Shown piece after piece: positions 8,548-36,174 of a stretch of 64,000 nucleotides of DNA; the stretch's first letter is position 1; every line of letters starts with the position of its first letter. Location of the stretch: the sequence record PX853108.1; one strand, written 5' to 3'. This stretch comes from a phage. The position numbers and the translations under genes are program-made. The notes under the pieces were generated by a model that had not been told where the DNA came from, ran no database searches, and worked only from the letters and a program-made list of their open reading frames with translations.

Positions 8548-8601
8548 TATTTATATAGCCTCCGTAACTGGAGGCTTACTTAGAAAAACAAAGAGGTTGT
8601 T

Positions 8602-18445: not shown

Positions 18446-19288
18446 ATGATTATGTCTTGTTCTGCTGAGGTAGAAGCTAACCGACTCTTAGAAGAGTTAA
18501 CTAAGGGTGATGACTTTACCCTTCCTGATATTGATATGTCCGGTCCTGAATGGGATATACCTGGTGGAGATGCTTCTCCAATCTTTGGTGCTATTTCTAA
18601 AGTAACTAATGAATCCCTTACTACCCGTGAAGTAGGTGGCAGTGGTACGTTTGATGCATTAATGGAATCTGCACACAATCACCTTAAGGCTGAGTTTAAG
18701 GCTAACCGTATTACTGGTGGTGAATATACCAAAGCATACATTGCTATGATGGAATCCTGCATGAGTAATGCTGTTCAGTTCTTACTTGGCCGTGACCAGG
18801 CATACTGGGCTGCTGCACTGGCACAGATTCAGGCAGTTACTGCTCGTGTTACATTGGCAACTTCTAAAGCACAGTTTGTACTGGCTAAGATTCAGGCACT
18901 GTCTGCTAAGAGTGAATATGCTCTTACTAAGATGAAGATTGCTACTGAGTCTGAGACATACTGTGCTGCATTGTTTAACGCCAGTCAGATGTTACCTCAA
19001 CAGCTTAAGCTGGTTACTGAGCAAACCGAATCACAACGTGCACAGACACTAGATACACGTAGTGATGGTGCTACTGTTACTGGTTCTGTAGGTAAACAGA
19101 AAGAACTGTACTCCCAACAGATTACTTCTTACCAACGTGATGCAGAGGTTAAGGCATCTAAGCTGTTTACTGATGCATGGATTACTCAGAAGACTATTGA
19201 TGAAGGCTTGAACCCACCAAATGGTTTCACTAACGCAAGTATTGATACCATTCTGGCCAAGCTGAAGTCTAACAACGGGCTGAACTAA
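18446..19288 (+). CDS. Virion structural protein
   Basis: 280 aa; RBS AAGAGGAA; Ala/Gln-rich helical sequence; structural block context. Confidence 0.4.
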
Positions 19289-19289: not shown

Positions 19290-21944
19290 ATGGGCTTATT
19301 CAGTGGGAAGACCAAAGTATACGTAGCATCCTCTGTCTATAACATGGCAGGGGATATACATAAACGTCCTAACTATATGAAGACTGTAGTCATTGGTAAC
19401 ATTGTTTCCAATACAGGATTCACTATGGCAGATACTATCTCTGATAGTTATCTGAATGGACCAGGTATTCGTATGCGACTGTTCTCCAGCTGGAGTAAGA
19501 ACCACTATGATTCAGAAGTTGGTATGGCAGGTTCTTCATTGGGTGTACTGGCTAAGATTGATCCTACTGTAATAGAGGGTCAAATTACACCTCCTGCTGG
19601 GGAATCTGTTTATGTTCAGGCAGCAGAGATTGGCTTTGCTGACTTTGAGCAATGGTGTGACCAGTATCTTTATGAGAATGCACCCAGTCGAATCATGGAA
19701 CGATTCGACGTAGACATTGATGAAGATACTAATGAAATTACTATGACCTCCCTGGATGGAGGTTCTACTATTAAATTCACGCCTACTAACTTTGAACCAG
19801 GTGCTTTGTATCTCTATGCTGATTACTCTTTCTATAAATCTCCTGTTACTAATCCGCCAGTAGTAGGACCAACTACTGTCTATGATAGTGAGGATGACTT
19901 ACCATCTACTTTGTTATGGACTACCATCTCAAGTGACACAACAGCTAATACAACTAATCTTACCAAGACAATACATACCCATTCTGTTTACTCTGATGGT
20001 AGACCAGATGAAGACAGTACTGTTACTGAACCAAGTGTGGATAACTGGAACTCTTACGTTAAGGTCTACCGTAGAGGATTTACCGAGAAACCTGATGACG
20101 TAACTGTAGTTGTATCTGACAGGGTAATGACTCATAAAAAGTTCGGTGAGATTCAATCAAGTACTACTGTAACTACTAATGTAGTTGATATAGGTGGTGG
20201 TGTTACTCGTACTGACACAATTACTACAACCACAGAGACACTGGTTCGTAAGTATTCATCTCAGACTACTCGTACTGATACTGAGATGACTGCTGTTGGC
20301 ACACCTAAGATGCTTATTTATAAACAGAATTCCGGTAACGTTGTACTGGATTCACTGTTTGAAACCGAGGCTACTGACAACCGATTCTACCCATTCATTC
20401 CAATCAGGAATGATAAACAATGGGTAGAGAATGACCCAATCTACCCACACTGTAAGAAAGCTCTTTATAAAGCTACTGGTGGAAAAATTGATAAGGTAGT
20501 GACAGAACTTAAGAAGAATAAGGATATAGGTGATATTCAGTACATTTACGGTACATTCGGTGTATCTCTTAATACCCCAGAGGATACTGCTAAGGAATAC
20601 ATCTACCGTTTCTTTCAGATGGCTACTGAAGCATTCCCACCTGACCCAACCTACCCGACTTTGGAAGCAGTAATTGCAGGTTATCAGGCAGCTAATGATG
20701 CAGTTGATGCATATGTAGAATGGTGGAACAGGACGGAAGGGCACACTATTGGAACTCCCCCACCACTGCCAGAATACCCTGTCATACCTAAGCGAGAGTT
20801 TAGGGTACACAGTAATAAACACTACAAGTACGATATGACCATTGGTTGGAATTACGTGTCTGAAACTACCCACTCAGGACAAGCATGGTCTGGTGCTAAG
20901 CAGGGTCAACTTCGATCCAGGTATGCAGGAGATATAACTCTTACTCGCAAGAATATACGTACTGCTAGTAACTCAGGTTCAACTAAGAAGCTGGAGGTAA
21001 CTACTACGTTCTATTCAATGCAGGAGTATGAGTTGCTTTGGCAGGATGGTAATGACACTTACCGTAAACTCAGAGTACTGGGCCTAAATCACAATAACAG
21101 AGTATATAAGAATAAGTCAGTACATATTGATGTTGCCGGGGCAATGGGTGATGCAGAGGAGAGTGGATTCATTATTCCATTACACACTAACATCTACCGT
21201 TCCATGTCACTGGTTCGAAGTACTCAGCTATCTACTGCCTGTTCCTACTTAGTGATGAACTCATATAAGAAGGTTAAGAAGAAATGGTATCAGACTGGGG
21301 CATTTAAGATTGTTGTTGTTGTGGTCGCTGTGGTTATCTCTGTATTTACAGCTGGTGCTGGTGGTGCAGGTATACTTGGAGCGTATGGTGCAGTTGGTGC
21401 ATCTCTGGGTTTTGTTGGATTAGCTGCTGTAATAGTCGGTGCTGTAGCAAACGCCATTGCTGGAATGATTCTGGTATCTATTATCACTAAAGTATCCGCC
21501 TCACTGTTCGGTGATAAACTCGGTTTTATTATTGCAGCTATTGCTTCAATGGTAGCTATGAATGTTGGTACTGCATTGTCTACTGGTACATCATTATCTA
21601 CCTTAGCTAGTGAAATGATGAATGCCCAAAACATTATGCAGCTTACCAGTTCAGTAGGTAATGGTATTAGTCAGTATATTAATGCATCTACGGCTGCTAC
21701 TATTCAGAAAGCAGAGAAAGTAATGCAGCAGTACAATACTGATATGATGGCAATCAATAAGCAGTATGAAGAGATGTTTGGTACTGCTGGGCAGGGTGTA
21801 ATTGACCCAATGCAATTCGTGTCAATGGAGTCACTGGATTCATTCTTATCCCGTACTCTCATGACTGGTTCAGATATAGCTGACTTGTCTCTAGACATGA
21901 TTGGCAACTACTCTGACATGACCCTTAATACAGACCTTGTTTAA
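19290..21944 (+). CDS. Large internal virion protein with C-terminal Gly/Ala-rich multi-TM region (putative ejection/channel protein)
   Basis: 884 aa; residues ~670-780 (nt ~21300-21600) form consecutive hydrophobic glycine-zipper-like segments (FKIVVVVVAVVISVFTAGAGGAGILGAYGAVGASLGFVGLAAVIVGAV...). Confidence 0.4.
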   Translation: MGLFSGKTKVYVASSVYNMAGDIHKRPNYMKTVVIGNIVSNTGFTMADTISDSYLNGPGIRMRLFSSWSKNHYDSEVGMAGSSLGVLAKIDPTVIEGQITPPAGESVYVQAAEIGFADFEQWCDQYLYENAPSRIMERFDVDIDEDTNEITMTSLDGGSTIKFTPTNFEPGALYLYADYSFYKSPVTNPPVVGPTTVYDSEDDLPSTLLWTTISSDTTANTTNLTKTIHTHSVYSDGRPDEDSTVTEPSVDNWNSYVKVYRRGFTEKPDDVTVVVSDRVMTHKKFGEIQSSTTVTTNVVDIGGGVTRTDTITTTTETLVRKYSSQTTRTDTEMTAVGTPKMLIYKQNSGNVVLDSLFETEATDNRFYPFIPIRNDKQWVENDPIYPHCKKALYKATGGKIDKVVTELKKNKDIGDIQYIYGTFGVSLNTPEDTAKEYIYRFFQMATEAFPPDPTYPTLEAVIAGYQAANDAVDAYVEWWNRTEGHTIGTPPPLPEYPVIPKREFRVHSNKHYKYDMTIGWNYVSETTHSGQAWSGAKQGQLRSRYAGDITLTRKNIRTASNSGSTKKLEVTTTFYSMQEYELLWQDGNDTYRKLRVLGLNHNNRVYKNKSVHIDVAGAMGDAEESGFIIPLHTNIYRSMSLVRSTQLSTACSYLVMNSYKKVKKKWYQTGAFKIVVVVVAVVISVFTAGAGGAGILGAYGAVGASLGFVGLAAVIVGAVANAIAGMILVSIITKVSASLFGDKLGFIIAAIASMVAMNVGTALSTGTSLSTLASEMMNAQNIMQLTSSVGNGISQYINASTAATIQKAEKVMQQYNTDMMAINKQYEEMFGTAGQGVIDPMQFVSMESLDSFLSRTLMTGSDIADLSLDMIGNYSDMTLNTDLV

Positions 21945-21957: not shown

Positions 21958-22401
21958 ATGGATTTGTCATTCTTAACAGGCAACCAAACCCCACAGCCAG
22001 CTGCTATGTCTTGGATGTCTAATAACAATCAGAACTTTAATACCCCGGCTATGAACTATAACCCTGGTGCAACTATTGGCATGGGTACGAATTTGGGTAC
22101 ATCTGCTTCTACTCCTTTCATGTCTGGCTCAGCTGGTCAATTGGGCATGAACGTACCTACCTTCCAACTAGGACTGGGTGCTCTTGGCTCATTAGCTAAT
22201 ATCTATAGTGGTTTCCAGGCTAATAAATTAGCTAAAGACCAGTTGAACTTTGCTAAGAGTGTTACTAACACTAACCTGAATAACCAGATTAAGTCTTATA
22301 ACACTGCACTGGAAGACCGTGCTCGTAGCCGTGCTGTTGCAGAGAACCGTGACCAATCCACTGCTGATGCTTATATTGCAGCTAATAAATTAACCCGTTA
22401 A
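21958..22401 (+). CDS. Small virion protein
   Basis: ORF 21937-22401 trimmed to ATG 21958 (AGGAGAA at 6 nt); Gly/Ser/Asn-rich. Confidence 0.4.
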   Translation: MDLSFLTGNQTPQPAAMSWMSNNNQNFNTPAMNYNPGATIGMGTNLGTSASTPFMSGSAGQLGMNVPTFQLGLGALGSLANIYSGFQANKLAKDQLNFAKSVTNTNLNNQIKSYNTALEDRARSRAVAENRDQSTADAYIAANKLTR

Positions 22402-22413: not shown

Positions 22414-24369
22414 ATGGCTCAAATTACATGGCGTAATGTTGATGCACCTAACTTCTCTGGAGTTGGTGACAGCATTCGTACATTTGGCAACATGATTGGT
22501 AACGCTACCTCCGGCTTAAGTGATGCACTGGGTAATTTCCAGAACGCTGCCAAGCAGGAGGCTGGCAATGCCGTCATGATGAATGCTATGCGATACCAAG
22601 ACCCTACTGAGTATCGTAATGCTTTGGCATCTGGTGCATTGTTTCAGGGGGTTGACCCTTCATTGGTAAGCCAGCGTACTCTTCAGAATCTGGATGAGCG
22701 AGCAGGTACTCTTCTGACTCAGCAAGGTCAGCAGGGAACCAATGACTACAATGCTTATAATTTTGGTCGCTTAAAGGATGTTAACTCTGCATTAGATAAT
22801 GCATCTCCAGCTATTCGTTTACTGTCTGAGGCTTATCAGTCTGGTGACCAGAACCGTATTAATGCTGCATTGGGTCAGACTCGTGATGCATTATCTGCAC
22901 TTCCTGCTGACCAACAACTGGATTTGTTGAGTCGTCTGCAAGGTCAAGGCGGTCAGGCTATTAACCAAGCACAGAACCGTTTTGATTTGGGAGTGGCTCA
23001 ACGTAATGATGCTGATAGTCAGGCAGCTATGGGTGTAATGTCACAGATTACTCGTGGTGCTGAGAATGCTGACGATGCCCGTATTCTGGCAGAGTCTTAT
23101 AGTAAGCATCTGTCTCCGGTTGCCCAGGCACGTTTACAGGAAATGCTTGCACGAGCATATCCGGGTGTTTACGGTAACAATGTTGGCGCTACATCTGCTC
23201 CTGGTACTGCTGGTACTCGTCAAGGTTCTCCTTACGATGTTACTTACCAATTTGCTGGTACATCTACTCCTATTACTCAGATGAGTATTGGTGATGTAAT
23301 TAAGCACCAGGATAGTATGAAGACGAACCAGGGTGCTTCACCTGTTGGTGCATTCCAGATTAACCAAGCTACTCTACTAGACTTCGCTCCCAAAGTTCTC
23401 GGTTCAGATTGGCAAAGCCAGCCTCTTTCTCCAGAGAACCAGGATAAGATTGGTAAGGCTATCTTCGAGGCTCGTAAGAATGGTAACCTTAAAGATACCT
23501 GGGCTGCTTTACCTAACTCTACCCCAGGTGCTTATAAGGATATGACTTGGGAACAGATTAAGCCTGTTATTGCTCAAGCTGAGGTAGGGGCTGACCCACT
23601 GGCTATGATTCAGAATAATCAAGGTAATCAGGCAGTATCTACTCTGGCTACCGGTATGATTGGTACTCGTTCTATGGAGGACAATGCTGGAAGTATTGCT
23701 CCTGATTATTTACCTGCCTTAAATGACACCTCTACTGTTGGGGAGGTTGCTAATAGATTACTGGAGGGTGATTTTAAGGGGGCAGATAAAAAATGGGTTG
23801 TGGCTCGTATTAGTGATATCGCTCAACGTGCTAATGTATCCCCTGCTATGGCAGGTGTTGTTGTTCAACGTGCAATGACTAATGCACCAGAAAGTTATAC
23901 AGGGCGTCTTATTGATTATCTAACCATAGGACAAACCCCAGAAGCCGGTAATGGCTTGCGTCTTAATGATGCTGCTGTAGACCAAATGGTTGAGGGGTTA
24001 AAACGTGGTGAACCCCTTGAAGCAAGTGTTCGTAACCTTGGTCGTGCTCAGGCTATGCAGAACATTCAGGCAGCACAGACTGCATATGATGCTGCTGTAG
24101 CTGCACTGACAAATACCCAGAATAAGATTGCTACTGGGCAGACAGCACTCACTGCGTTACTTCCGTCACGACAGGAACAAGTGCGTAGAGCTGCTGAAAT
24201 GCTTAAAAATGCACAAGGCCAAGTCCAGGCTGACCCACAAAACCTGGCTCCACGTAACTTTCGGTCACAGGCTTCCGTAGATCGAGAGGCTGAGAAAGAA
24301 AACCAGGAGCGTGCTATACGGTATATACGCCAAGCCCAGGGCATACCTGGGTATGTGAAAATGCCTTAA
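22414..24369 (+). CDS. Internal virion protein with lytic-transglycosylase-like (SLT-type) motif
   Basis: 651 aa; RBS AGGAAA; contains DSMKTNQGASPVGAFQINQAT, resembling the SLT signature ES-x7-SPVGA-(GLMQ) but with Asp in place of the catalytic Glu. Confidence 0.4.
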   Translation: MAQITWRNVDAPNFSGVGDSIRTFGNMIGNATSGLSDALGNFQNAAKQEAGNAVMMNAMRYQDPTEYRNALASGALFQGVDPSLVSQRTLQNLDERAGTLLTQQGQQGTNDYNAYNFGRLKDVNSALDNASPAIRLLSEAYQSGDQNRINAALGQTRDALSALPADQQLDLLSRLQGQGGQAINQAQNRFDLGVAQRNDADSQAAMGVMSQITRGAENADDARILAESYSKHLSPVAQARLQEMLARAYPGVYGNNVGATSAPGTAGTRQGSPYDVTYQFAGTSTPITQMSIGDVIKHQDSMKTNQGASPVGAFQINQATLLDFAPKVLGSDWQSQPLSPENQDKIGKAIFEARKNGNLKDTWAALPNSTPGAYKDMTWEQIKPVIAQAEVGADPLAMIQNNQGNQAVSTLATGMIGTRSMEDNAGSIAPDYLPALNDTSTVGEVANRLLEGDFKGADKKWVVARISDIAQRANVSPAMAGVVVQRAMTNAPESYTGRLIDYLTIGQTPEAGNGLRLNDAAVDQMVEGLKRGEPLEASVRNLGRAQAMQNIQAAQTAYDAAVAALTNTQNKIATGQTALTALLPSRQEQVRRAAEMLKNAQGQVQADPQNLAPRNFRSQASVDREAEKENQERAIRYIRQAQGIPGYVKMP

Positions 24370-24472: not shown

Positions 24473-27400
24473 ATGTCAACATTTGACCGTCTGGCAGGTT
24501 TCGCAGACAGCATCACTAATGCTAAGCAAGTCGATGTCTCTACTGCAACCTCCCGGAAGCAAGCTGCACAGGGGCAAAGCCCTTTCCAATTAACCCCAGA
24601 TAATGCTTACAATCTACAGACTGGACGAGTAGGTAATCTTGGAATCGGTGCATACGAACCAGGTTCACTTCAGGCAGATTTCACTCAAGCCTCCCCCTTA
24701 GAAATCATTAATAAATATGGTAATGAGCAAGGTCTACAGATTCTTAATAGTCGAGCTAATGCTGCTGATGCTGTACGTCAGGACTTATCTAAACAACGTA
24801 CTAACGCAGAAGCATTTGGCGATATCCTTTCTGGTGTTGGTCTTGGTGTTGCTAATACCCTTGGGGGCATTGCTGCTCTTGGCACAGGCTTGGTCAATGA
24901 TAATGCCGGGGCATCCATTGCTTCCGGTCTTGACTGGTTGAATAAAGGTGTACACAACCTACAGTCCGATGCACTGAATGCTCGCCGTAATGTAGTACAG
25001 AACCAGAACGTAATATCTGCACAGGAAAATGAGAAACTCTATAAGCAAGATATTGCTAAAGGAGAAAGCGAACTCGTTGCTTCCCTGTCTCGCATTGGTC
25101 GTGATGCTTACGATTCTGTTGCTAATACCCTGTCTAACGGCATGGCTGCTACTGATGGTATTGCTGAAGGTGTAGGTTCTCTGTTTACTGGTGGCCCATT
25201 AATCCGTGGTGTATCTGCACTCGGTAAGGTAATGGTAGGTGGAGATAAAGCTGTTAAGGGTATTACCTTAGCTGCTGAGTTAGGTTCACGTCCTGCACGG
25301 ATTGCACAGTCTGCTGGTCGTGTTGCTGCACCTGCTATAGCAATTGGTGGTATGGAAGCTGGTGGTGCATACCAACAGACTGCTAATGAAATTATGGAAA
25401 TGCCATTCAGTGAACTGGCTGCTAAATCTCCAGTATACCAACAGCATATTAAAGATGGTTTATCTCCTGAAGAAGCACGTCGTCAGACTGCATCTGAAAC
25501 AGGTATTACTGCTGCTGGCTTAACTGCTCCAGTTGCTGCTCTTACTGGTCCACTGGTATCCAAGTTTGAACTTAACCCACTCAAGGTAGGTTCACTGGCT
25601 GGTGCTGGTTCTAACATGCTGCGTGAGACTGTAGAAGAAGGTATCCAGTCTGGTACAAGTCAGTTCGCACAAAACACTGCAATCAAGGAAAATGTTGATG
25701 CATCTCGTGACATCCTCAAAGGTGTAGGCGAACAAACTGGTCTTGGTGCATTGTATGGCTTTGGTTCTGCTGGGGTTGCTCAAGCTCCTGGTGCAACTGT
25801 TAAGGCTGCTGGTGCTGCCGTTGGTCCTGCTGTACGTACTACCCTGGCTGGTGCTTCTTTGGCTGGTAAGGCACTAGCAAAAGTAGCCTCCCCTATTACT
25901 AACATCCTGGTTCAGCGTGGTGAAGAAGTAGCTAAACGTAACGAACAGGCATCTCCTGTATCTGATGCTACGGTTAATGCTGCTGCACAGGAAGCTACTG
26001 CTCAGGCAGAACAGGCCCAGGCAACCGTACAGGAAGCAGTAGATGCAATGGATATTTCTCCAGAAGAGAAAGCTGCTGCTACCCAGTATGCTGCTGACTT
26101 AACTCAGGTAATGAAGTTTGATCCAGTAGAACTGGAACAAGCTAGCCCTACAGTCCGTGAAGCTGTTTCTGGTTCCACTAACCGTGTTGAAGCTATTCAG
26201 AAGATGGCTGACCTGGTTAATACTGCCGAAGACCCTAACGTTCAAATGGAAGCTGCAATCCAGATGTACGACAACATCATGTCTATGGATAGCTTCATTA
26301 ACCGTGACCCAGGTGCTCTGGCTAATCTGGAACAAGGCTCTCCTGCTGCTAATATCGTTGACCAATTCTCTGGCCTGATGGCTAACGTTCAGAATACACC
26401 GAAAGTACTTCGTGCATTCCGTGCTATTCATTCCATGATTCAGGAACAGGCAGAAGCAGGTAAACTGAAAGCTACTGAAGAAGCTAACCAAGCCCAGGCA
26501 AACAATATTGCCATGGCTGCTGATATGTCTCCAGAAGTACTGGATGCAGATTCAGTAAACATGGTTCTGAAACATGCAAGTGAAGGTAAGATTACACTGG
26601 GGAATCGTCAGCGTGCTGCCCTGCAATCTGCTGCTGCCTTGTTACAGGGTGCACGAGAATTTGACGCTAAAGCAGAAGAACTAGGCTTACGTCCTCAAGA
26701 CATTGTTAGTAAACAGATTAAAACCGACGAGTCTCGTTCTAATGAAGGCCAGTACTCTGCGTTGCAACATGCTAAACGCATTCGTTCTGCGTACAACTCT
26801 GGTAACTTCGATTTGGCTTCCGCTTATCTCGACGACTTTATGAAGTTCGCCCAGCACATGCAGAATAAGGTCGGAGCGTTGAATGAGCATCTGATTTCTG
26901 GGAATGCGGATAAGAATAAGTCTGTCCATTATCAGGCTCTTACTCCCTCCCGTGAATGGGTACGTAGTCGTACTGGCCTCGGTGTCAATCCGTATGATAC
27001 CAAGTCTGTTAAGTTTGCCCAGCAAGTAGGACTGGAAGCCAAGACCGTAGCTGATATTGCTAACGCACTTGCTACGGCTTACCCGGAGCTTAATGTTTCT
27101 CATGTTAAGGTTACCCCATTGGATTCCCGTTTGGACAAGCCTGCTGCCCAAGTAGTTAAAGAGTTCCGTCAGGGCAATCTTGATGCTGCTCAATCCCAAC
27201 AGACCAATGAACCAGTGAATCAGGTTGATGAATCTCCTGTTACAAAACAGGAACCAGTTACCCCTACTGTACAGACTAAACCCTCTGTTAGTGAAGCTGT
27301 TAAAACAGAACCTACTATTAAAGAGTCTAAACCACAGACTGCAAAAGAACCTGAGAACCAGTCTGAAAAACAGGATGCTGTTGAACAGCCTACTGAATCT

Positions 27401-30400
27401 GAAAGGGATGCTTATGTAAAAGAGAATACTATTTCTCAAGAAACTCTTAATAAGTATGGTGACCGTAGGGAGAGTCCTTGGCTATTTGCTGATGGTACTG
27501 TTGTTGGTTCCAATGGTGACCATATCAGCCTGTCTGATGTATTTGGTCATGATGGTTATCGTGACATGTCTTTGGATACTGGTGCTGTACGTTCTACTTT
27601 CTACAAAGGAAGTGAGCAACCGTTCGTATCCCTGCAATTGTTTGATAATCAGAAGCTAACTGCTGAACAATTCAATACTGTTCAATCATTCGTAGAAGCA
27701 AACAATGCACTGATTCAGATTGGTGTAGATACATCTGGGCTTAATACCAATAACGTTGAGAAAGAAGAAGTATCACTGGCTCAACTGAAAGCAGACTATA
27801 CCGTTGGTGGTAAACCCCTATCTCAAATGGAAACAGTGTTCCCTGTCTATAACAATGAAAAGACATCGAACCAGTTCCTTAAAGCATTTTCTCTACCAGA
27901 GGAGCCTAAGTCTCGTACCATTGGTTCTGAATCTCCTTTGACTGATGTTAAGAAAGCACTGTCTTCTGCTGCCCGCTTTGAAGCATTCACTCAAAAAGAA
28001 AATAACGCACTCACGAGTGATGTGATTAAGCGTTACCAGGATTTGTTTGATTTTGGTGAAACTTTGAAGACCACTCTGTCTGACCGTCTGGCTAAGTTCC
28101 TTGCTAACAAGAACGTTGGTAAACGTTTTGCAGAAGGTACTGAGGCTAACCGTTGGGTGGGTGGTAAGTTACTTAACATCGTAGAGAAAGATGGTGATAC
28201 CTTTAAGTTCAACGACCAGTTGTTAGAGACTGCTGTACTTGCAGGTTTGCAATGGCGACTAACTGCTACACAGAATGCTGCTGTTAAAGACATGAAAGAC
28301 GTAGCTGCTATTACTGGTGTGGAAGCATCTCTGCTACCAGAAGGTATCCTCGCAGAGTTTGAGAATGCTCAAACCTTAGTAGAGGCTACTAACTCACTGG
28401 CTCAGAAGATTGAATCCTATTGGGGGCTTAATCGTAATGCTGATGCACCATTGGGTTATACCAAGGGTATCCCAATGGCAATGGCTACAGAGATTCTGTC
28501 TTCTCTCATTGAGATGGGTGAAGTTAAAGAGTCCATGCTGGATGTGTCTGAGATTGACCCAGAATCTAATAAGACCGTTGGTTTGTATACCATTGAGAAG
28601 TTAGATGATAACGATGCCATTAATAAATTCCCTACTGCTATTGAGGAAGCAGTCCTTCTAGAACCAGTAGAGAAATTGTACTTGGGTGATGATATTCCTT
28701 CAGTGGCTCAAACTCAGTTACGTAACCCGGCTGTCAAGAATACCCCGGAACAGAAAGCTGCTCTTAAAGCAGAACAGGCTACTGAGTTCCGTGTACACAT
28801 GCCCATGGTTAACTTCTATGAAGCATTGGGTCGTGACAACATTCTGGAATTGATGGGTGCTGGTGCTCTTAACCCAGAATTGCTGAATGTGAATACTGCT
28901 AAATCTCTGGAAGGTAAAAACCTGTCCGTGTCTATGGCATATGATTCCTTGTTTGGTGTTATCAATCAGATTAAGGAACAGGAGAATGGACTGGATACAC
29001 CTATTCACTATGGTTACAACATGACCCGTGTAGGTCGTATGCAGATGCTTGGTAAAAATAACCCACAATCCAGTAAGCTGGTCCGTGAAGCAATCTTACC
29101 AACCTTCTCTACCATCGACTTGAGCAATGAAAACAGTCAAACGTTCTCCGATTTCCAGTTAGGTCTGGCTCAGGCATTGGGCATCAAAGTTCATAAAATG
29201 TCTCGCGAAGTTATGTCAGATGAACTGACTAAAGCTCTGGAAGGTAAACTGAAACCTGCCGTTGATATGATGGTTGAGTTTGATAAGTCTGGACACTTAC
29301 CTACTGATGCAGTGGATATTCTGAAGACCTCTTTGGGTAATGATAAATCATTTGTAGCTCTCATGGCTCTTATGGAATATGCCCGTTACCTTAACAGTGA
29401 TGACCGTGCCAACTTTAATACCCCACTGTACGTTGAAGCTGATGGTGTAACCAACGGACCAATCAACGCAATGGTATTAATGACTGGTGGTAAGTTCACC
29501 CCAGACTGGATTAAGAATACTGCTAAAGGTGGCTTGTTCTTCGGTAAAGCTGGCAAGACTATGAACGAGCATCATTCGCACGAGGACAGTGTTGACCTGT
29601 ATGAAGCATCCACTAATGGTCTGCAACAAGCACTGAATGAATTACGTAGTACTTACCGTAACAACGTTCCTGTTATGAACCAGATGAACCATCTCCAGAA
29701 ATTAATGGACCTGTTCATTAAAGATTTCAATCTTAAGGAAGATGGTACTCTGGACCTGAAACGTGGTATTGCGAAAAACCCACTGACCATTACCATTTAT
29801 GGTTCTGGTGCTCGTGGTATTGCTGGCAAGATGGTTAGTGCAATTACTGATACCATCTACGAACGCTTCAGTGACGTTCTACAAGCTCGTGCTGCTGACC
29901 CTAGCATTTCACCAGCTATGGCTATGTTTGGTAAGGAGGCTGCGTCTGAGGCTGATGCTCAGGCTATGCTGGATACTTTCCTTACTTCTATGGAAGCATT
30001 GACTGGCAATGTTCCGGTTATGCGTAAAGGTGAGTTGTCTATTCAGCAGGTAGAAGGTGCTCTGACCGGTAAATTAGACCCTCAGAAGTTTACTGTATCA
30101 GGCAATGCTCTGAAGAATTTACAAGAGAACATGCTTCACTTGTTCGTTGAACCAATGCGTACTGGTATCCGAAATACTGTTGGCGAAGGTTTGATGTACT
30201 CTACTGAGAATTTGCAGAAGGCTACCCAGATTCAGTCTCTGGTATTGCAGGATATGTTCCAACAGGCAGTACAGGCTAAGCTGGCAGAAAAAGAAAAAGA
30301 CCCAACATGGAAGAAAGGTGATTTCTTAACACAGAAAGAACTGAATGAAATCCAGAATAGCTTAGCTCCACTGGCTCCAATGATTGAGACTGGTTCACAG

Positions 30401-33400
30401 ACTTTCTACATTGCTGGTAGTGAGAATACTGATGTTGCTAACCAAGTATTGGCTACTAACTTAGATGACCGTATGCGTGTACCAATGAGCATCTATGCTC
30501 CTTCACAGGCAGGCGTTGCAGGTATTCCGTTTATGACCATCGGTACTGGTGATGGCATGATGATGCAGACCCTTTCTACTATGAAAGGTGCTCCGAAGAA
30601 TACCCTGAAAATCTTTGATGGTATGAACATTGGTATCAACGATATCACCGATGCAAGCCGTAAAGCTAATGAGGCTGTATATACTTCCTGGCAGGGTAAC
30701 CCTATCAAGAATGTTTATGATTCCTTTGCTAAGTTCATGAAGAATGTAGACTTCAGTAAACTGTCTGATGAAACCAAACAGGCTATCGCTAAGTCTGCTC
30801 TGGAGTATGACCAGCGTGAGGGTGCTACCGATGACCTGTTACGTGTTGGTGCTGAACAGATTGAACGTAACCTGCGTAACATTGCTTTGGGTGTAGATAT
30901 TCGTCACAAGGTAATGGACCAGGTACAGGTCACCGTTGACCAGATGGCTGCTGTTGGTGCTCCTTACGTGAACAACGGTAAAATCTCTCTGGAAGGTCTG
31001 ACTGTAGACCAGCAAGTAGCTAAGCTGAACGAACTGTTTGATGCTGAATTAAACAAACGTCGTGATGCAGTTCGTGCTGCTAAAGCAGAACCAGTGAAAG
31101 AAGTACCGGCTATGGAGAAGGTTGGTCGTGTACTGAAGTCTGGTGTACGTCTGTTGTCTAATACTGCCATTACTAAGCTGGCTAAAGAGATGTCTCCTGA
31201 ACAGCAAGCAGTATTGAAAGAAATACAGAAATCCCTCGCTGCTAAAGACTATAAGGTTGTTTACGGTACACCTGCTCAACTGGATGCTTATGCTATTGAG
31301 AAGAATATTACTCGCCCAGCACCGGAAGATATTGAAGCTGCTGAAGCTGGTAATGCATATGGCTGGACTAACTTTGAAGATAAGACCATCTACTTAGTTA
31401 CCCCTTCCTTAGAGACTCTGGTTCATGAATTGGTACATGCTACTACTTTTGAATCTGTACTGGCTCATTATGAGGGTACTCCTAATGAAGCAGTACAGAA
31501 TATTGAAGACCTGATGAACCAGTTCCTTACTCTGGATGTTAAGGATGAATCTCCGGCTGTACGTGAAGCGTATGCCGATGCACTGAATACCATTAATGGT
31601 CATTTGTCTAATGGCTTCATTGAACCCGCAATGGCTAAAGCTGCTGCATTGAACGAGTACATGGCTTGGGGTTTAACCAACCGTGAACTGATTAGCAAGC
31701 AGAAGAAAACTACTGCACTTAAAACTATGGTTCAGGCTGTATATGAAGCAATCAAACGTCTGGTATTTGGACGTAAGAAAGCTCCAGCTAATGCAGATGA
31801 TATGTTCTCTGGCTTACTGTTTAACTCTGCTGTAGTAATGCGTGGGCAAGCTCCTACTGCTGCTGTAGCTAAAGACACTACTCTGTTCCATAACAAAGCA
31901 TATGGTGACAATACTCGTCTGGAAGAGTTAGGTAAGACCTTTGATAAACTGATTACTGACTACATTGGTTCAGAACCAGTACAGCAAGTAATTCGTAAAG
32001 GTAAATTCTCTGATGCAGTAGTGAATGCAACTAAAGTAACCCGTGATGTTCAGGCTCATGGCTTCACCATGAATATGCAGGAACAACGCCTCTTCACTAA
32101 CATTGTTGCTGCATTGGCTACTGAGGCTGCTATTAACCCTGCTGCTCTTGCTCGTGCACAGGAATACTACACGCATGTTACTAAAAACCTGACTGTTGAA
32201 GCATTTATGGCTGACCCTGATAGTACTAACCCTGCTGACCGTTATTATGCACAGCAGAAGTTCGATACTATCATGGGTGCTAACAACATTGAGTTTGATG
32301 CACAAGGTCGTTCTTCCTTACTGCCTACCTTTGTTGGTCTGGCTATGGTAAGTGAAGAAGTACGTAAGGTTCTGGCTGATATTCCTGTTATGAAAGCAGA
32401 TAAGAAATCAGGCAATACTGTTGACGCAATGCTGACTAACATTGGTACTGCTGCAATGGCTAGCCTGAATGCTCGTGTAGCAGGTGATACTAAAGCCACT
32501 AACGTACAGGAAGGTATGGATGCACTGGCTCAGACAATCATGCAGACCAGTCTTAATGCAGAATCCTTCTATGATTCCGTTGCTACCCCTACTGGTAATG
32601 CTATCGACCGTGCTAACCAGTATCTGGTGGATTCTATTGATGTACTGTCTACCCGTGCTTTGGAAGGTGCTCGTGAAGTTGCAGCTAATACCAAGAACCC
32701 GTTGGTTAAAGGTGCTGCTCATGCTGCACAATTGGTAGCTGCTATTGCTACAGAGAAGAATGGTGCAATCGTAGCCGAAGGTGTTATGGCTGCAATGAAC
32801 CAGGGTAAAGTATGGCAACCCTTCCATGACCTGGTTAATGACATAATCGGACGTACTAAGAGCAATGCTTCTGTATACGATTTGATTAAAGCAGTTCGTG
32901 CACAGGTACAGGCTGACCGTCAACAGTTCCGTGAACACTTGCCTACCACTATCGCATCCAAGTTCAGCCGTAAGCTGACTAATGATGAGTGGAAAGCAAT
33001 GCATACAGGTATGGGTAAAACTGACTTAGCTGTTCTGCGTGACACTATGTCTCTGGATGAAATCCGTGACCTGCTGTCTGACCAAAAGATTGTTGACCGT
33101 GAGGTTAATAAACTGGAAGCAGATTTGCAGAAACAAGCAGGACGTAACTGGCCTCTGATTAGTCGTAAATCTAAGCAACTGGCTCAGTACATGATTAATG
33201 GTACGGTTGGTAATAACCTGTTGCGTAATGCTACTGCAATTTCTCGTTTACTGGGTGAACGTAAGACTACACGTTCTGTTGTAGATGTAGCTCAACTGGA
33301 TAAACTCATTACCCTGTATGCACTGGAAGCAATGAATAAAACTGACCGTGAGATGTTATCTTCACTGGCTCAGACAGAAATTGAAGGTATGGACTTTGCT

Positions 33401-35227
33401 ACTTCTTACCTGGTTGGTCAGCGTAAAGATGAAATGGCTAAAGCTAAGTCTGATAGTCGTGCAACCCTGAACCAGTACAAAGGGTATATTCCTGGTGAGA
33501 ACAAACAGGGTGTTAACCTGATTGTTGCTGAAGATAGTCAGTTTGCTGATTTGATTGAGAAATCCTATGTACGACTGGGTACTTATCAGGGTAGCTCTGC
33601 TAATCGTGGTCCAGCACGTAGTTACTACTTTGCACCGGTACAGGCACAGGCTCCATTCTCACAAGGTATCCTACAGAACGTTCGCAATACTGCTGGTGGC
33701 GTAGACCTTGGCACAGGCTTTACGATGGGAACCATGGTAGCTGGTCGTATTACTGACAAGCCTTCTGTAGACCGTATCACTAAAGCACTGGCTCGTGGTG
33801 AACGCGGTAATGAACCACTGCTGCCTGTATATGATGCCAATGGTAATGTGGTTGCTTACGAGCAATCCATTGACCCTAACATGCTGAAGCACATCGAAGG
33901 TGAGAACCATCTTGCTCGTGCAATTGGTGTATGGCGTGGTCGTCAGGTGGAAGAAGCTAAGGCTCAGCGTTTCAACGATATGCTGATTGAGAACCTGCAT
34001 AGCATGTACGAGAACGACATTAAGATGTCTGCTTCTAATAAGTCCCAGTACGTTAACCTTCTTGGTTCGAAACTGGACCCAGTAACTGCCGATGCTCTTA
34101 AACTGATGAACAGTGAAACTCGTCAGAAAGCAGAAAGTCTGTTTGGACCGGGTGAGTTGTGGGTACGTCGTGACATGCTCAACGATGCACTGGGTTATCG
34201 TGCAGCTTCTGTTGGTGATGCCTGGTCTGGTAATTCTCGTTGGTCCCCAGAAACACTAGATACCTTCAAGAAAGCTATGCTGGGTGTCTTTGGAAACCGT
34301 GCTTATAAGTACGTAATGGGTGGTGAGAATCTGGTTCAAAACTTAGTTAAAGAAGCCAAGACTCTGATTGTAGTTAAGTCAGTAGTCGTACCTGCTGTTA
34401 ACTTCCTGGCTAACCTTTACCAGATGGTTGCTCGTGGTGTACCTGTTAAGAACATTGCTAAGAGCATCCCACAGAAAACTGCTGAGATTAATCAGTATCT
34501 GAAATCTCGCCTGCGTCAGGTAGATGCAGAAGCAGAATTACGTGCAGCTACTAACCCTAACCAGATTCGTAAGCTGAAGGCTGAGATTCAGTCCATCACG
34601 GATAGCCATAAGCGTTTGAGTATCTGGCCTCTGTTAGAAGCTGGTGAGTTTTCTTCAATTGCAGATGCTGGTATTGGACGTGATGACATCCTGATTACTG
34701 AAGGTAAACTTCACGAATACATGGAAAAGCTGGCTGATAAGTTGCCTAAGTCTGTACGTAATGCTGGTCGTTATGCACTTATCACTAAGGATACTGCTCT
34801 CTTCCAGGGTATCCAGAAGACGGTTGAGTACTCTGACTTTATTGCTAAAGCAATCATCTATGATGAACTGACTCAGCGTAAAGGTAAGACCCGAGAAGAA
34901 GCACTCGGACGTGTAACGGAAGAGTTCATTAACTATGACCGTTTGCCTGGCCGTTTCCGTGGGTATATGGAAAGTGTTGGTCTGATGTGGTTCTACAACT
35001 TTAAGATTCGTTCTGCAAAAGTTGCAGTGTCCATGATTCGTAACAACCCAGTACATGCTGCTATGGCTATGTTGGCTCCAACTCCTACCATGTTTGGTAA
35101 CGTTGGTCTGCCTATTAAGGACAACATCTTTAGTATTGCTGCACAGGGCAACCTCGGTTACTCCTTCGGATTCGGTATGGGCTTACGTGCCCATACCCTG
35201 AACCCGTGGCTCAACCTCACTAACTAA
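24473..35227 (+). CDS. Virion-encapsidated RNA polymerase (N4 gp50-like giant vRNAP)
   Basis: ORF 24455-35227 begins at TTG; first ATG with RBS AGGAAA is 24473 (~3,584 aa). Central region has T7-like motif A (ADGVTNG, nt ~29423), motif B (RGIAKNPLTITIYG, nt ~29762) and motif C (IFDGMNIG, nt ~30611). Confidence 0.85.
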   Translation: MSTFDRLAGFADSITNAKQVDVSTATSRKQAAQGQSPFQLTPDNAYNLQTGRVGNLGIGAYEPGSLQADFTQASPLEIINKYGNEQGLQILNSRANAADAVRQDLSKQRTNAEAFGDILSGVGLGVANTLGGIAALGTGLVNDNAGASIASGLDWLNKGVHNLQSDALNARRNVVQNQNVISAQENEKLYKQDIAKGESELVASLSRIGRDAYDSVANTLSNGMAATDGIAEGVGSLFTGGPLIRGVSALGKVMVGGDKAVKGITLAAELGSRPARIAQSAGRVAAPAIAIGGMEAGGAYQQTANEIMEMPFSELAAKSPVYQQHIKDGLSPEEARRQTASETGITAAGLTAPVAALTGPLVSKFELNPLKVGSLAGAGSNMLRETVEEGIQSGTSQFAQNTAIKENVDASRDILKGVGEQTGLGALYGFGSAGVAQAPGATVKAAGAAVGPAVRTTLAGASLAGKALAKVASPITNILVQRGEEVAKRNEQASPVSDATVNAAAQEATAQAEQAQATVQEAVDAMDISPEEKAAATQYAADLTQVMKFDPVELEQASPTVREAVSGSTNRVEAIQKMADLVNTAEDPNVQMEAAIQMYDNIMSMDSFINRDPGALANLEQGSPAANIVDQFSGLMANVQNTPKVLRAFRAIHSMIQEQAEAGKLKATEEANQAQANNIAMAADMSPEVLDADSVNMVLKHASEGKITLGNRQRAALQSAAALLQGAREFDAKAEELGLRPQDIVSKQIKTDESRSNEGQYSALQHAKRIRSAYNSGNFDLASAYLDDFMKFAQHMQNKVGALNEHLISGNADKNKSVHYQALTPSREWVRSRTGLGVNPYDTKSVKFAQQVGLEAKTVADIANALATAYPELNVSHVKVTPLDSRLDKPAAQVVKEFRQGNLDAAQSQQTNEPVNQVDESPVTKQEPVTPTVQTKPSVSEAVKTEPTIKESKPQTAKEPENQSEKQDAVEQPTESERDAYVKENTISQETLNKYGDRRESPWLFADGTVVGSNGDHISLSDVFGHDGYRDMSLDTGAVRSTFYKGSEQPFVSLQLFDNQKLTAEQFNTVQSFVEANNALIQIGVDTSGLNTNNVEKEEVSLAQLKADYTVGGKPLSQMETVFPVYNNEKTSNQFLKAFSLPEEPKSRTIGSESPLTDVKKALSSAARFEAFTQKENNALTSDVIKRYQDLFDFGETLKTTLSDRLAKFLANKNVGKRFAEGTEANRWVGGKLLNIVEKDGDTFKFNDQLLETAVLAGLQWRLTATQNAAVKDMKDVAAITGVEASLLPEGILAEFENAQTLVEATNSLAQKIESYWGLNRNADAPLGYTKGIPMAMATEILSSLIEMGEVKESMLDVSEIDPESNKTVGLYTIEKLDDNDAINKFPTAIEEAVLLEPVEKLYLGDDIPSVAQTQLRNPAVKNTPEQKAALKAEQATEFRVHMPMVNFYEALGRDNILELMGAGALNPELLNVNTAKSLEGKNLSVSMAYDSLFGVINQIKEQENGLDTPIHYGYNMTRVGRMQMLGKNNPQSSKLVREAILPTFSTIDLSNENSQTFSDFQLGLAQALGIKVHKMSREVMSDELTKALEGKLKPAVDMMVEFDKSGHLPTDAVDILKTSLGNDKSFVALMALMEYARYLNSDDRANFNTPLYVEADGVTNGPINAMVLMTGGKFTPDWIKNTAKGGLFFGKAGKTMNEHHSHEDSVDLYEASTNGLQQALNELRSTYRNNVPVMNQMNHLQKLMDLFIKDFNLKEDGTLDLKRGIAKNPLTITIYGSGARGIAGKMVSAITDTIYERFSDVLQARAADPSISPAMAMFGKEAASEADAQAMLDTFLTSMEALTGNVPVMRKGELSIQQVEGALTGKLDPQKFTVSGNALKNLQENMLHLFVEPMRTGIRNTVGEGLMYSTENLQKATQIQSLVLQDMFQQAVQAKLAEKEKDPTWKKGDFLTQKELNEIQNSLAPLAPMIETGSQTFYIAGSENTDVANQVLATNLDDRMRVPMSIYAPSQAGVAGIPFMTIGTGDGMMMQTLSTMKGAPKNTLKIFDGMNIGINDITDASRKANEAVYTSWQGNPIKNVYDSFAKFMKNVDFSKLSDETKQAIAKSALEYDQREGATDDLLRVGAEQIERNLRNIALGVDIRHKVMDQVQVTVDQMAAVGAPYVNNGKISLEGLTVDQQVAKLNELFDAELNKRRDAVRAAKAEPVKEVPAMEKVGRVLKSGVRLLSNTAITKLAKEMSPEQQAVLKEIQKSLAAKDYKVVYGTPAQLDAYAIEKNITRPAPEDIEAAEAGNAYGWTNFEDKTIYLVTPSLETLVHELVHATTFESVLAHYEGTPNEAVQNIEDLMNQFLTLDVKDESPAVREAYADALNTINGHLSNGFIEPAMAKAAALNEYMAWGLTNRELISKQKKTTALKTMVQAVYEAIKRLVFGRKKAPANADDMFSGLLFNSAVVMRGQAPTAAVAKDTTLFHNKAYGDNTRLEELGKTFDKLITDYIGSEPVQQVIRKGKFSDAVVNATKVTRDVQAHGFTMNMQEQRLFTNIVAALATEAAINPAALARAQEYYTHVTKNLTVEAFMADPDSTNPADRYYAQQKFDTIMGANNIEFDAQGRSSLLPTFVGLAMVSEEVRKVLADIPVMKADKKSGNTVDAMLTNIGTAAMASLNARVAGDTKATNVQEGMDALAQTIMQTSLNAESFYDSVATPTGNAIDRANQYLVDSIDVLSTRALEGAREVAANTKNPLVKGAAHAAQLVAAIATEKNGAIVAEGVMAAMNQGKVWQPFHDLVNDIIGRTKSNASVYDLIKAVRAQVQADRQQFREHLPTTIASKFSRKLTNDEWKAMHTGMGKTDLAVLRDTMSLDEIRDLLSDQKIVDREVNKLEADLQKQAGRNWPLISRKSKQLAQYMINGTVGNNLLRNATAISRLLGERKTTRSVVDVAQLDKLITLYALEAMNKTDREMLSSLAQTEIEGMDFATSYLVGQRKDEMAKAKSDSRATLNQYKGYIPGENKQGVNLIVAEDSQFADLIEKSYVRLGTYQGSSANRGPARSYYFAPVQAQAPFSQGILQNVRNTAGGVDLGTGFTMGTMVAGRITDKPSVDRITKALARGERGNEPLLPVYDANGNVVAYEQSIDPNMLKHIEGENHLARAIGVWRGRQVEEAKAQRFNDMLIENLHSMYENDIKMSASNKSQYVNLLGSKLDPVTADALKLMNSETRQKAESLFGPGELWVRRDMLNDALGYRAASVGDAWSGNSRWSPETLDTFKKAMLGVFGNRAYKYVMGGENLVQNLVKEAKTLIVVKSVVVPAVNFLANLYQMVARGVPVKNIAKSIPQKTAEINQYLKSRLRQVDAEAELRAATNPNQIRKLKAEIQSITDSHKRLSIWPLLEAGEFSSIADAGIGRDDILITEGKLHEYMEKLADKLPKSVRNAGRYALITKDTALFQGIQKTVEYSDFIAKAIIYDELTQRKGKTREEALGRVTEEFINYDRLPGRFRGYMESVGLMWFYNFKIRSAKVAVSMIRNNPVHAAMAMLAPTPTMFGNVGLPIKDNIFSIAAQGNLGYSFGFGMGLRAHTLNPWLNLTN

Positions 35228-35233
35228 ATGAAA

Positions 35234-35255
35234 AAGCCCCTCTAATGAGGGGCTT
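35234..35255. terminator. Bidirectional intrinsic terminator at the plus/minus convergence point
   Basis: Stem AAGCCCCTC/GAGGGGCTT with TAAT loop, 7 nt after the vRNAP stop; the minus-strand side has a TTTTTCATTT tract. Confidence 0.6.
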
Positions 35256-35290
35256 CTGCTAGTACTCATACTTGATGTGCTGTAAAGGAT

Positions 35291-35524
35291 TTAATCACAT
35301 TTTTTCCACATCTTAGGCTTACGCCCTTCACTTGGAAATTTACCAGTCTCTTTAATCTTCCGTAGCATTTCCTCTGATGGGAACCACAGGAATGAGAAGT
35401 AAAGTTTCTTAGCTACGTAACGAGTTACTCCTAGTTTCTCTGCGATTTCATCAAATGAATATGTACGAACAGTATTGTTGAGAATGGCTTCACGAACAAC
35501 AGAGGTAATAGATACTTGTGTCAT
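35291..35524 (-). CDS. Small DNA-binding (HTH-like) protein
   Basis: 77 aa; FDEIAEKLGVTRYVAKK resembles a helix-turn-helix; last gene of the minus-strand block. Confidence 0.4.
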   Translation of the reverse strand: MTQVSITSVVREAILNNTVRTYSFDEIAEKLGVTRYVAKKLYFSFLWFPSEEMLRKIKETGKFPSEGRKPKMWKKCD

Positions 35525-35545
35525 GCTATTTTCCTATAAATGAGA

Positions 35546-35566
35546 AAGCCCTCACTAGGAGGGCTT
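35546..35566. terminator. Second hairpin terminator (plus-strand oriented T-tract) inside the minus-strand block
   Basis: Stem AAGCCCTC/GAGGGCTT with 5-nt loop, followed on the plus strand by GTTTTGTTTTGG. Confidence 0.45.
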
Positions 35567-35647
35567 GTTTTGTTTTGGCTTCATGAGCCTTACTACTTTG
35601 TCGGGTAGTTCAGTACCTTTCGGTAAAAACTACCTTACACCTTTGAA

Positions 35648-36028: not shown

Positions 36029-36174
36029 TATTAGCCTCATAGAGTGGTTTGAGTTTGTACTTAAACATGACTGCGTTGTTATAGGCTACGCTACCTGCAA
36101 ATACCAAGTATTTATGTCCTCGATTATCCGTTACCTCATAGGCATACGGGGTAGAGATTAGGTCAATCATAACT

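Follow-up and report, generated by a model that had tools for sequence, protein, structure and literature searches.

An open reading frame (ORF) in phage sequence record PX853108.1 encodes a protein with a long hydrophobic zone toward its C terminus. Is this zone part of a channel that crosses the host envelope, or does it serve another function in the virion? We examined the locus within a window of 64,000 nucleotides (the whole stretch of DNA analyzed, numbered from its first letter). A sequence-only reading of this DNA had described the product as an internal virion protein with a C-terminal glycine zipper, consistent with an ejectosome component that spans the envelope. The gene boundaries given in that reading coincide exactly with a single ORF, from ATG to TAA (Table 1).

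The ORF very probably encodes the tail plug of an N4-like phage

A search of the PDB with the ORF product matched gp53 of coliphage N4 (9YFT_FA; E = 0; residues 1 to 883), and the two proteins are 55% identical by tblastn. They are also alike in length (884 aa, compared with 885 aa for N4 gp53) and in genomic position. The profile of PHROG 2220, which is listed as "unknown function," matched residues 1 to 883 of 884 (E = 0); no family was matched when Pfam and NCBIfam were searched. The globular core of the product has a fold that is common to solved or docked plugs. The tail plug of N4-like phages (gp53) is an already known kind of protein, and we concluded that the ORF product is, with high probability, a member of the gp53 family and the single-copy tail plug of an N4-like podophage.

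The surrounding genes are arranged as in N4, with the same order from gp69 to gp50, and the plug ORF lies between the orthologs of gp54 and of gp52, gp51, and gp50. The product of the upstream gene matched 9D80_C ("Tail protein"; 1e-147), N4 Gp54 (9LC0, 9YF4, and 9YFT; 3e-123), and the DEV tail tube protein gp75 (3e-20) in the PDB, and it is 67% identical to N4 gp54. The plug ORF starts one base past the stop codon of this tail tube gene. On the other side, the gp52 ortholog matched PDB entry 9YF4_OA ("16.5 kDa protein"; 9e-46), with the alignment starting at residue 8 of the ORF as listed, and the tblastn match to N4 gp52 begins at position 21958. N4 gp50 matched positions 24473 to 35224 of the window with 60 to 70% identity (tblastn). 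The window is from a G7C/Gamaleyavirus-like member of the N4 family (Schitoviridae). The G7C-type phage group has been used in therapy-oriented work.

N4 gp64 and gp65 gave no tblastn match in the window; the flanking genes gp63 and gp66 (N terminus)/gp67 were present and syntenic. The slot of gp64 and gp65 is occupied by genes for an 895-aa G7C gp66-like tail protein and a 627-aa tailspike. In N4, the gp65 sheath (gp64/gp65) holds the plug via C-terminal domains D9-D10 (PMC13434306), whereas the window has G7C-type tail and tailspike genes and lacks a clamp of this type. Since gp64 and gp65 are missing, the plug-retaining, receptor-coupled partner or gating complex must differ from that of N4.

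TABLE 1 Coordinates of the plug gene, its segments, and neighboring genes
Feature	Residues	Nucleotides	Strand	Basis or remark
Tail tube gene, N4 gp54 ortholog		18446..19288	+	PDB and tblastn; tube sealed by plug
Probable tail plug gene, N4 gp53 ortholog	884 aa	19290..21944	+	ATG 19290, TAA 21944
N-terminal knot segment	29-56	19374..19457	+	N4 residues 29-56 in knot; numbering unshifted in alignment
Beta-feather, four long strands, Ser/Thr-rich	211-334	19920..20291	+	AF2 and N4 gp53 description
Basic/aromatic collar KKVKKKWY	660-667	21267..21290	+	Directly precedes hydrophobic zone
Hydrophobic zone	667-774	21288..21611	+	108 residues
Cork ("hydrophobic knot") part of hydrophobic zone	674-720	21309..21449	+	Matches cork seen in N4
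Second half of hydrophobic zone, two more hydrophobic segments	721-774	21450..21611	+	Mostly beyond N4 model end
Acidic C-terminal tail	775-884	21612..21941	+	Conserved, 110 residues
gp52 ortholog, small ejection protein stored in tail lumen above plug		21958..22401	+	PDB and tblastn
gp51 ortholog, ejection protein		22414..24369	+	PDB 11MN_A ("66 kDa protein") 3e-132; 49% identity with N4 gp51
Virion RNA polymerase, gp50 ortholog, third ejection protein		24473..35227	+	tblastn

The hydrophobic zone is a conserved feature of the plug family

The Gly/Ala/Val-rich hydrophobic run of the sequence-only reading was readily confirmed. Gly, Ala, and Val make up 50% of the zone but 19% of the remainder of the plug protein (composition of the zone, A21 V17 G16 I11 S10 L9), and 92% of its residues belong to the set GAVILMFST. 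Only four residues are charged (K673, K734, D742, and K743). The 60 residues from aa 674 to 733 are free of D, E, K, and R, and the cork segment is also free of H, N, and Q. The Kyte-Doolittle mean over 19 residues reached a maximum of 2.53, with four hydrophobic peaks at about aa 674-692, 701-732, 722-740, and 745-763. In a hydropathy scan of all six frames of the window (ORFs of at least 60 aa, read from the first Met), the plug ORF had the largest number of hydrophobic 19-residue windows. The zone does lie toward the C terminus, as had been proposed, but the polar, conserved tail comes after it.

The term "glycine zipper" fits the zone only loosely. There were no matches to GxxxGxxx(G,S,T) in the zone, and the relaxed pattern (G,A,S)xxxGxxxG matched once, at A737-G741-G745, a site that includes D742 and K743 (P = 0.58 versus shuffles). 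GxxxG occurred twice (P = 0.69 versus composition-matched shuffles). We rejected a classical glycine zipper because these counts were not above those of composition-matched shuffles. Shorter spacings were enriched in the zone: GxxG was observed 6 times versus 2.15 expected (P of about 0.01) and GxxGxxG 3 times versus 0.29 expected (P of about 0.005), with a GxxG periodicity at 694/697/700/703 in the cork. Small-xxx-small patterns were mildly enriched (P of about 0.02).

The hydrophobic zone is kept even in homologs as distant as 34% overall identity. Column identity averaged 0.64 in the zone, versus 0.42 to 0.48 in the outer domains. Compared with N4 gp53, the parts that face the tube or its lumen are 62 to 79% identical (76% for the N-terminal 70 aa, 69% for the C-terminal cork segment, and 70% for aa 729-774), whereas the outer core and feather are only 38 to 41% identical. 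G703, G707, A713, and N721 are invariant, and many Gly and Ala positions are at least 90% conserved; in the second half of the zone, G741, G745, I747, and G766 reach this level. At aa 674-686, only hydrophobic character is conserved. The conservation of Gly, Ala, and Asn at the level of identity in aa 694-725 suggests tight packing of helices.

The same pattern extends across the family. All 143 representatives (clustered at 50% identity) have the hydrophobic run; in the median, their longest uncharged run is 62 residues long and stops 158 residues short of the C terminus. A search with the C-terminal 245 aa against 1.84 billion representatives found the module in 1,186 representative proteins. 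Among the best 150 of these 1,186 matches, the module was always at the C-terminal end, feather-less proteins included, and none lay outside the plug family. Because the zone is conserved across the family, we rejected an origin by chance, low complexity, or drift.

The hydrophobic zone matches the cork of the N4 tail tube

By cryo-electron microscopy, N4 gp53 has been identified as the tail plug, a single-copy protein in a 12:6:1 symmetry mismatch (Bellis et al., Nat Commun 2026; PMC13434306) that sits mostly outside the tail tube (9YFT; PMC13434306). Residues 29-56 and 670-716 of N4 gp53 come together as six short helices in a hydrophobic knot, the cork of the tube (PMC13434306). None of these helices has membrane length, and the knot takes in the first half of the hydrophobic zone (9YFT). 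N4 residues 670-716 align to aa 674-720 of the present protein (offset, +4), which is exactly the run without polar residues. The N4 model comprises residues 9-724, residue 724 corresponding to residue 728 here, and the remainder is "lost in the tail lumen" (PMC13434306). The C-terminal 160 residues of N4 gp53 lie in the lumen and have been proposed to act as a "ripcord" for luminal gp52 (PMC13434306).

The present protein shares with N4 gp53 both knot segments, the beta-feather, and the acidic C-terminal tail. AF2 predicted helices at aa 29-40 and 46-55 and four feather strands at aa 211-234, 241-266, 272-302, and 305-334 (pLDDT mostly 80 to 93). Ser and Thr account for 34% of aa 206-340, and the feather matches a deletion of aa ~185-337 in a class of homologs of ~700 to 760 aa. 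In the collar, W666 is invariant, and conservation is at least 90% at K663, K665, and Y667. The second half of the hydrophobic zone was predicted as helix with a pLDDT below 50, as for all of aa 686-884, and the N4 knot was not reproduced; since AF2 was unable to model the cork, we took the knot from the N4 literature. The C-terminal tail has 13 D/E versus 4 K/R residues, with G831, E847, R855, T856, and G860 invariant, and is expected to lie in the tail lumen.

Our plug assignment combines two kinds of evidence: orthology, synteny, conservation, core fold, and helical propensity were computed here, and the literature on N4 shows where the plug lies, that it is present once per virion, that it forms the knot, and that it stays on emptied particles. 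By homology, the N4 plug arrangement should also hold for the present phage. A literature search returned nothing specific on Gamaleyavirus (G7C) virion proteomics or plug structure, and the gp53 and gp54 named in PMC4819975 belong to other phages only. In Pseudomonas phage DEV, gp74 has been given the same plug role ("N4 gp53-like"; PDB 9ZE4_M), and virion proteomics has been cited for the conserved plug protein (PMC12892993). DEV gp74 has the conserved N terminus and the hydrophobic C-terminal module; unlike the present protein, it is 740 aa long and without a beta-feather, with ~12 to 14% identity in structural alignments. It is held by a gp56-gp55-gp54 receptor-binding fiber, with no sheath.

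The sequence-only reading had named two observations that would speak against it, absence of the protein from virions and a soluble beta-sheet in the hydrophobic region. N4 gp53 was detected in virions by LC-MS (PMC13434306), and Moo19 gp70, a 70% identical ortholog, is present in virions by mass spectrometry; the density at the Moo19 tube tip is too weak for identification. The hydrophobic region is predicted to be helical by AF2, and the KP8 homolog is annotated with four transmembrane (TM) helices (Phobius). Hence, neither observation was made. The term "internal" is apt in that orthologs are in virions and the hydrophobic part is expected to lie inside the tube lumen, but the protein is not an internal head protein.

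The plug is not the envelope-spanning channel of N4

The reading as an ejectosome component spanning the envelope was not supported, and gp53 is not a known ejectosome component. The N4 ejection channel consists of gp52, gp51, and gp50, of which gp52 and gp51 form pores in lipid bilayers (PMC13434306); these are products of separate genes adjacent to that of the plug. We nevertheless considered whether gp53 could itself be an internal protein that is ejected from the virion to become part of the channel. Its C-terminal region is hydrophobic and helical, its gene adjoins the ejection cassette, and the C-terminal 160 residues of N4 gp53 lie beside gp52 in the lumen, where an unassigned "double ring" density was also seen (PMC13434306). 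However, the folded external part, a globular core and feather of ~670 residues, is too large for a channel of ~35 Å unless it unfolds. Moreover, plug density is seen on both full and emptied N4 particles, the emptying being in vitro and not into cells (PMC13434306).

The podophage ejection proteins (T7 gp14/15/16, N4 gp52/51/50, and DEV gp73/72/71) are virion-borne, like gp53, and are encoded adjacent to the plug gene; some of them have hydrophobic segments that form membrane pores. Unlike these proteins, gp53 is single-copy, mostly external, and kept on emptied particles. It is also non-homologous to them: the PDB search returned plug proteins only, and none of the known ejection proteins (N4 gp50/51/52, DEV gp71/72/73, or T7 gp14/15/16). 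The C-terminal part of the plug had no sequence similarity to gp52 (E above 1). We conclude that an ejected, channel-forming gp53 is very improbable.

Membrane insertion and assembly as alternative functions

A stopper could have a second use. After extraction at the outer membrane, a module of ~100 residues, especially aa 721-774, might insert into the bilayer and either anchor the tail tip or seed the gp52 pore. The four hydrophobic segments score marginal to good as TM helices, in line with the Phobius annotation of the KP8 homolog; summed values on the Hessa scale were about 0 (aa 674-692 and aa 711-732) or +2 (aa 722-740 and aa 745-763). The conserved KKVKKKWY collar lies ahead of the first segment, and a hydrophobic domain exposed close to a bilayer should tend to partition into it.

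There are precedents for such a role. The L-loops of the phi29 tail knob protein gp9 (Xu et al. 2016/2019; PMC6542822) form a hydrophobic helix bundle within the knob that, like gp53, blocks the distal end of a podophage tube before infection. Unlike gp53, gp9 is non-homologous, is present in six copies, and uses loops of the tube protein itself, and its host is Gram positive. Experiments on phi29 show the L-loops leaving the knob as a barrel of hydrophobic helices that penetrates the membrane; a comparable step for gp53 would be hypothetical. In phage T5 (Linares et al. 2023; PMC10038345), as in the gp53 model, the tube is plugged and hydrophobic segments are in the lumen. Receptor binding is mechanically coupled to unplugging, and the pb3 plug shifts aside and is not lost; pb3 refolds into membrane-anchoring beta-hairpins, and hydrophobic segments of tube-stored pb2 enter the outer membrane, as seen or inferred from nanodisc complexes (PMC10038345). 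T5 pb3 differs from gp53 in that it is a non-homologous, trimeric baseplate-hub protein of a siphophage.

Several observations weigh against membrane insertion. The plug is still on empty N4 particles, apparently re-seated via the knot, and gp52 and gp51 alone suffice for pores in bilayers. The identity-level conservation of Gly, Ala, and Asn is more in keeping with a specific folded knot than with helices that face lipid. Since each virion has one copy of gp53, the protein cannot alone make a DNA-sized channel. On balance, we consider a second use of the cork in the membrane unlikely. A specific form of this idea is that receptor-driven extraction brings aa 721-774 and the acidic tail into the outer membrane first and that they nucleate the gp52 pore or set its position; for G7C-type phages without gp65, the trigger would be a different plug-holding partner, e.g., the gp66-like tail protein. 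We regard this form as speculative and quite unlikely; if it is true, gp53 would be the true initiator of envelope penetration.

Alternatively, the hydrophobic segments might act in morphogenesis, either by anchoring newly made gp53 in the inner membrane or as a core for assembly of the gp54 dodecamer and luminal gp52, with corking as a by-product. The TM-like segments follow a large soluble domain in the chain, translation of gp53 is coupled to that of gp54 (a single base separates the stop and start codons), and the very strong conservation of the C-terminal tail implies specific protein contacts. Nonetheless, in the solved N4 structure the segment already serves as a structural element of the mature virion, and nucleation of assembly is compatible with the plug explanation rather than an alternative to it. 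A role mainly in morphogenesis is highly unlikely.

Proposed mechanism of plugging and release

We propose that the first ~670 residues, comprising the globular core and the beta-feather, would sit outside the distal end of the dodecameric gp54 tube. The chain would then re-enter the tube, where aa 674-720 and aa 29-56 would fold into a compact, Gly/Ala-packed knot of short helices. This knot would cork the gp54 tube and keep DNA and ejection proteins inside, while the last ~160 residues, with two hydrophobic segments and the acidic tail, would run up the lumen beside stored gp52. When receptor-binding proteins engage the host, the plug would be pushed sideways and the cork and luminal tail pulled out. 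Unplugging would free gp52, and then gp51 and the giant RNA polymerase, to form the trans-envelope channel. By homology with N4, the luminal tail may free gp52 as a ripcord in the present phage also.

Several TM-like helices in a row do not by themselves make a phage structural protein a membrane channel; in the present case, they would be a stored hydrophobic stopper. The role of the second half of the zone and the tail after unplugging, and the way in which the plug is held in G7C-type phages, bear on the coupling of receptor binding to ejection. The homologs of the plug gene could all be renamed tail plug (N4 gp53 family). In the phage records that we examined, they are mostly labeled "hypothetical protein," and a few are labeled "membrane protein," "4 transmembrane helical domains containing protein," or "baseplate wedge protein."

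Window gp53 is the homologue of the N4 tail plug

The sequence-only reading placed a protein with a Gly/Ala/Val-rich hydrophobic C-terminal region at 19290-21944, and a single ORF ("window gp53"), separated by one base from the preceding gene's stop codon, matches these coordinates. Its DNA shares ~92% identity with N4-like coliphages and Shigella phages of the Gamaleyavirus type, e.g., pSb-1, ECBP1, Bp4, and EC1-UPM. We used tblastn with gp50 to gp69 of coliphage N4 against the window and found that synteny is complete except for gp64, gp65, and most of gp66. The order is gp69, terminase gp68, gp67, the gp63 to gp61 lysis genes, Rz, portal gp59, gp58, gp57, capsid gp56, gp55, tail tube gp54, window gp53, gp52, gp51, and the virion RNA polymerase gp50 (3,590 aa). 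Genes adjoining window gp53 match solved virion components of N4, Pseudomonas phage DEV, and phage Moo19.

Features of the window (nucleotide positions)
Feature	Position	Strand	Details
Window gp53	19290-21944	+	ATG to TAA, 884 aa
Hydrophobic zone of window gp53	21288-21611	+	aa 667-774; by composition
Slot of gp64/gp65/gp66	5860-10485		holds the next two genes
G7C gp66-like tail protein	5860-8547		895 aa
Tailspike	8602-10485		627 aa
gp57 orthologue	15230-16450		406 aa; adjoins capsid gene
Two adjacent tRNA-like genes	36754-36909	-	first is tRNA-Ile, anticodon AAT

Window gp53 and N4 gp53 are 55% identical (tblastn). A PDB sequence search matched window gp53 over its whole length to N4 "Gp53" (9YFT chain FA; E = 0) and, hydrophobic zone included, to the DEV "N4 gp53-like protein" (9ZE4_M; 5e-19). 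Searches of Pfam and NCBIfam with window gp53 returned no model; PHROG 2220, labeled as unknown function, spans it end to end. An AF2 model built on a 40-sequence alignment was confident over residues 7 to 670, with a globular core and four very long strands at 211 to 334 (the "beta-feather"), whereas residues 686 to 884 were modeled as helices with low confidence.

Public labels of gp53 homologues are inconsistent: most are "hypothetical protein," and others are "membrane protein," [quoted passage not shown] "baseplate wedge protein," and "putative tail protein." In pSb-1, Bp4, and several Rhizobium phages, the annotation divides the homologue between two CDS. For three neighboring genes, the mechanical ORF calls probably place the start too far upstream: N4 gp52 aligns from ATG 21958 rather than TTG 21937, so that its ORF no longer overlaps the gp53 stop, N4 gp50 from ATG 24473 rather than TTG 24455, and N4 gp54 from 18452 rather than 18446.

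The first half of the hydrophobic zone corresponds to the cork of the N4 plug

Gly, Ala, and Val make up 50% of the hydrophobic zone versus 19% of the rest of the protein; GAVILMFST residues account for 92% of the zone, and only four residues are charged. A run of 60 residues (674 to 733) is free of D, E, K, and R, and 47 residues (674 to 720) lack any strongly polar residue. Among ORFs of at least 60 aa in the window (first Met, any frame), hydrophobic 19-residue stretches were most numerous in window gp53. The zone has four hydropathy peaks; summed Hessa-scale values were ~0 kcal/mol for residues 674 to 692 and 711 to 732 and ~+2 for 722 to 740 and 745 to 763, suggesting marginal to good transmembrane propensity. 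The region had been described as C-terminal and as a glycine zipper. It is strongly hydrophobic, but a polar, acidic, well-conserved tail of 110 residues follows it. "Glycine zipper" is a loose label: the single relaxed motif (A737-G741-G745) and the two GxxxG motifs equal the expectation from composition, whereas GxxG (P, ~0.01) and GxxGxxG (P, ~0.005) are enriched, at 694/697/700/703.

[quoted passage not shown] In the N4 orthologue, this feature has already been reported. In that structure, gp53 is the plug, present as a single copy on the dodecameric gp54 tube with its greater part outside. The base of the tube is corked by a "hydrophobic knot," six short helices contributed by residues 29 to 56 and 670 to 716, and the luminal part of gp53 may contribute, with gp52, to a poorly resolved double ring. 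In the PDB-search alignment, N4 residues 29 to 56 equal window residues 29 to 56, and N4 670 to 716 equal window 674 to 720, exactly the polar-free run. This correspondence identifies the first half of the hydrophobic zone as the predicted cork. Residues 721 to 774 and the acidic tail (775 to 884) correspond to the N4 luminal part that lacks a model. Other reports agree with the N4 picture: in DEV, the equivalent plug is gp74, and another receptor-binding fiber holds it (PMC12892993); Moo19 gp70, 70% identical to window gp53, was found in virions, with weak unassigned density at the tube tip; and four transmembrane helices were predicted for the homologue in phage KP8. Window gp53 is thus very probably a tail plug, whose hydrophobic segment would cork the tail-tube lumen and whose C-terminal tail would sit among stored gp52 copies.

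An envelope-spanning ejectosome component had been proposed from the sequence. The protein does appear to belong to the virion and to have a hydrophobic part that is hidden there, but we consider a role as an ejected channel component very unlikely: its folded domain of ~670 residues is located outside the tube, and separate, adjoining genes without similarity to gp53 encode the ejectosome proteins. In N4 the trans-envelope channel is assigned to gp52, gp51, and gp50, and gp52 and gp51 form bilayer pores (PMC13434306). A morphogenetic membrane anchor or assembly core is similarly improbable; it would add to the plug explanation rather than supplant it.

The authors of the N4 structure proposed that receptor binding shifts the plug laterally and that its C terminus acts as a "ripcord" for luminal gp52 (PMC13434306). 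The main rival reading, insertion of the extracted cork into the outer membrane, which is compatible with a plug and has precedents in the L-loops of phi29 gp9 and in T5 pb3/pb2, seems rather unlikely, since the N4 plug is kept, apparently re-seated, on emptied particles and there is one gp53 copy per virion. The fate of the cork after unplugging is one of two points of remaining interest, the other being the missing gp65 partner.

Tube-facing parts are more conserved than the outer surface

Across 40 homologues, with identity down to 34%, the N terminus, residues 601 to 666, and the hydrophobic zone were best conserved (mean column identity, 0.64 to 0.71, versus 0.42 to 0.48 for the outer domains). 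G703, G707, A713, and N721 are invariant; G694, G697, G710, G717, A720, A722, A724, A725, G741, G745, and G766 are nearly so. A KKxKKKWY collar directly precedes the zone. Only hydrophobic character is kept in residues 674 to 686, whereas residue identity is kept in 694 to 725, a pattern that, we infer, would suit a folded knot with specific helix-helix packing better than helices that face lipid. A search with the last 245 aa against 1.84 billion representatives gave 1,186 proteins at an E of ≤1e-3, and the module was C-terminal in all 150 matches listed (the best 150 of 1,186). Homologues fall into two length classes, ~850 to 950 aa and ~700 to 760 aa, the latter with the feather (residues ~185 to 337) deleted.

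Relative to N4 gp53, the tube- and lumen-facing parts are 62 to 79% identical versus 38 to 41% for the outer core and feather. Genes gp64 and gp65 of N4 encode sheath and receptor-binding functions, and the plug is clamped there by gp65 (PMC13434306). In contrast, gp64 and gp65 were not found in the window by tblastn with the N4 proteins, and conservation of gp66 is limited to its first 72 residues; a G7C gp66-like tail protein and a tailspike are present instead. [quoted passage not shown] A plug-holding partner differing from that of N4 would agree with the weaker conservation on the outside of the plug.

Other features of the window

PHROGs and N4 RefSeq label gp57 "tail length tape measure protein," which is odd for a head-block gene of a short-tailed phage and may be a propagated misannotation. 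Late and structural genes on the + strand end with the virion RNA polymerase gene, and coding thereafter is on the - strand; cumulative GC skew turns over at this switch, near 35 to 36 kb (~35200-36600). ARAGORN gave the second tRNA-like gene the label "tRNA-???" and an anticodon of two bases (ac), and it is therefore an odd or degenerate tRNA.
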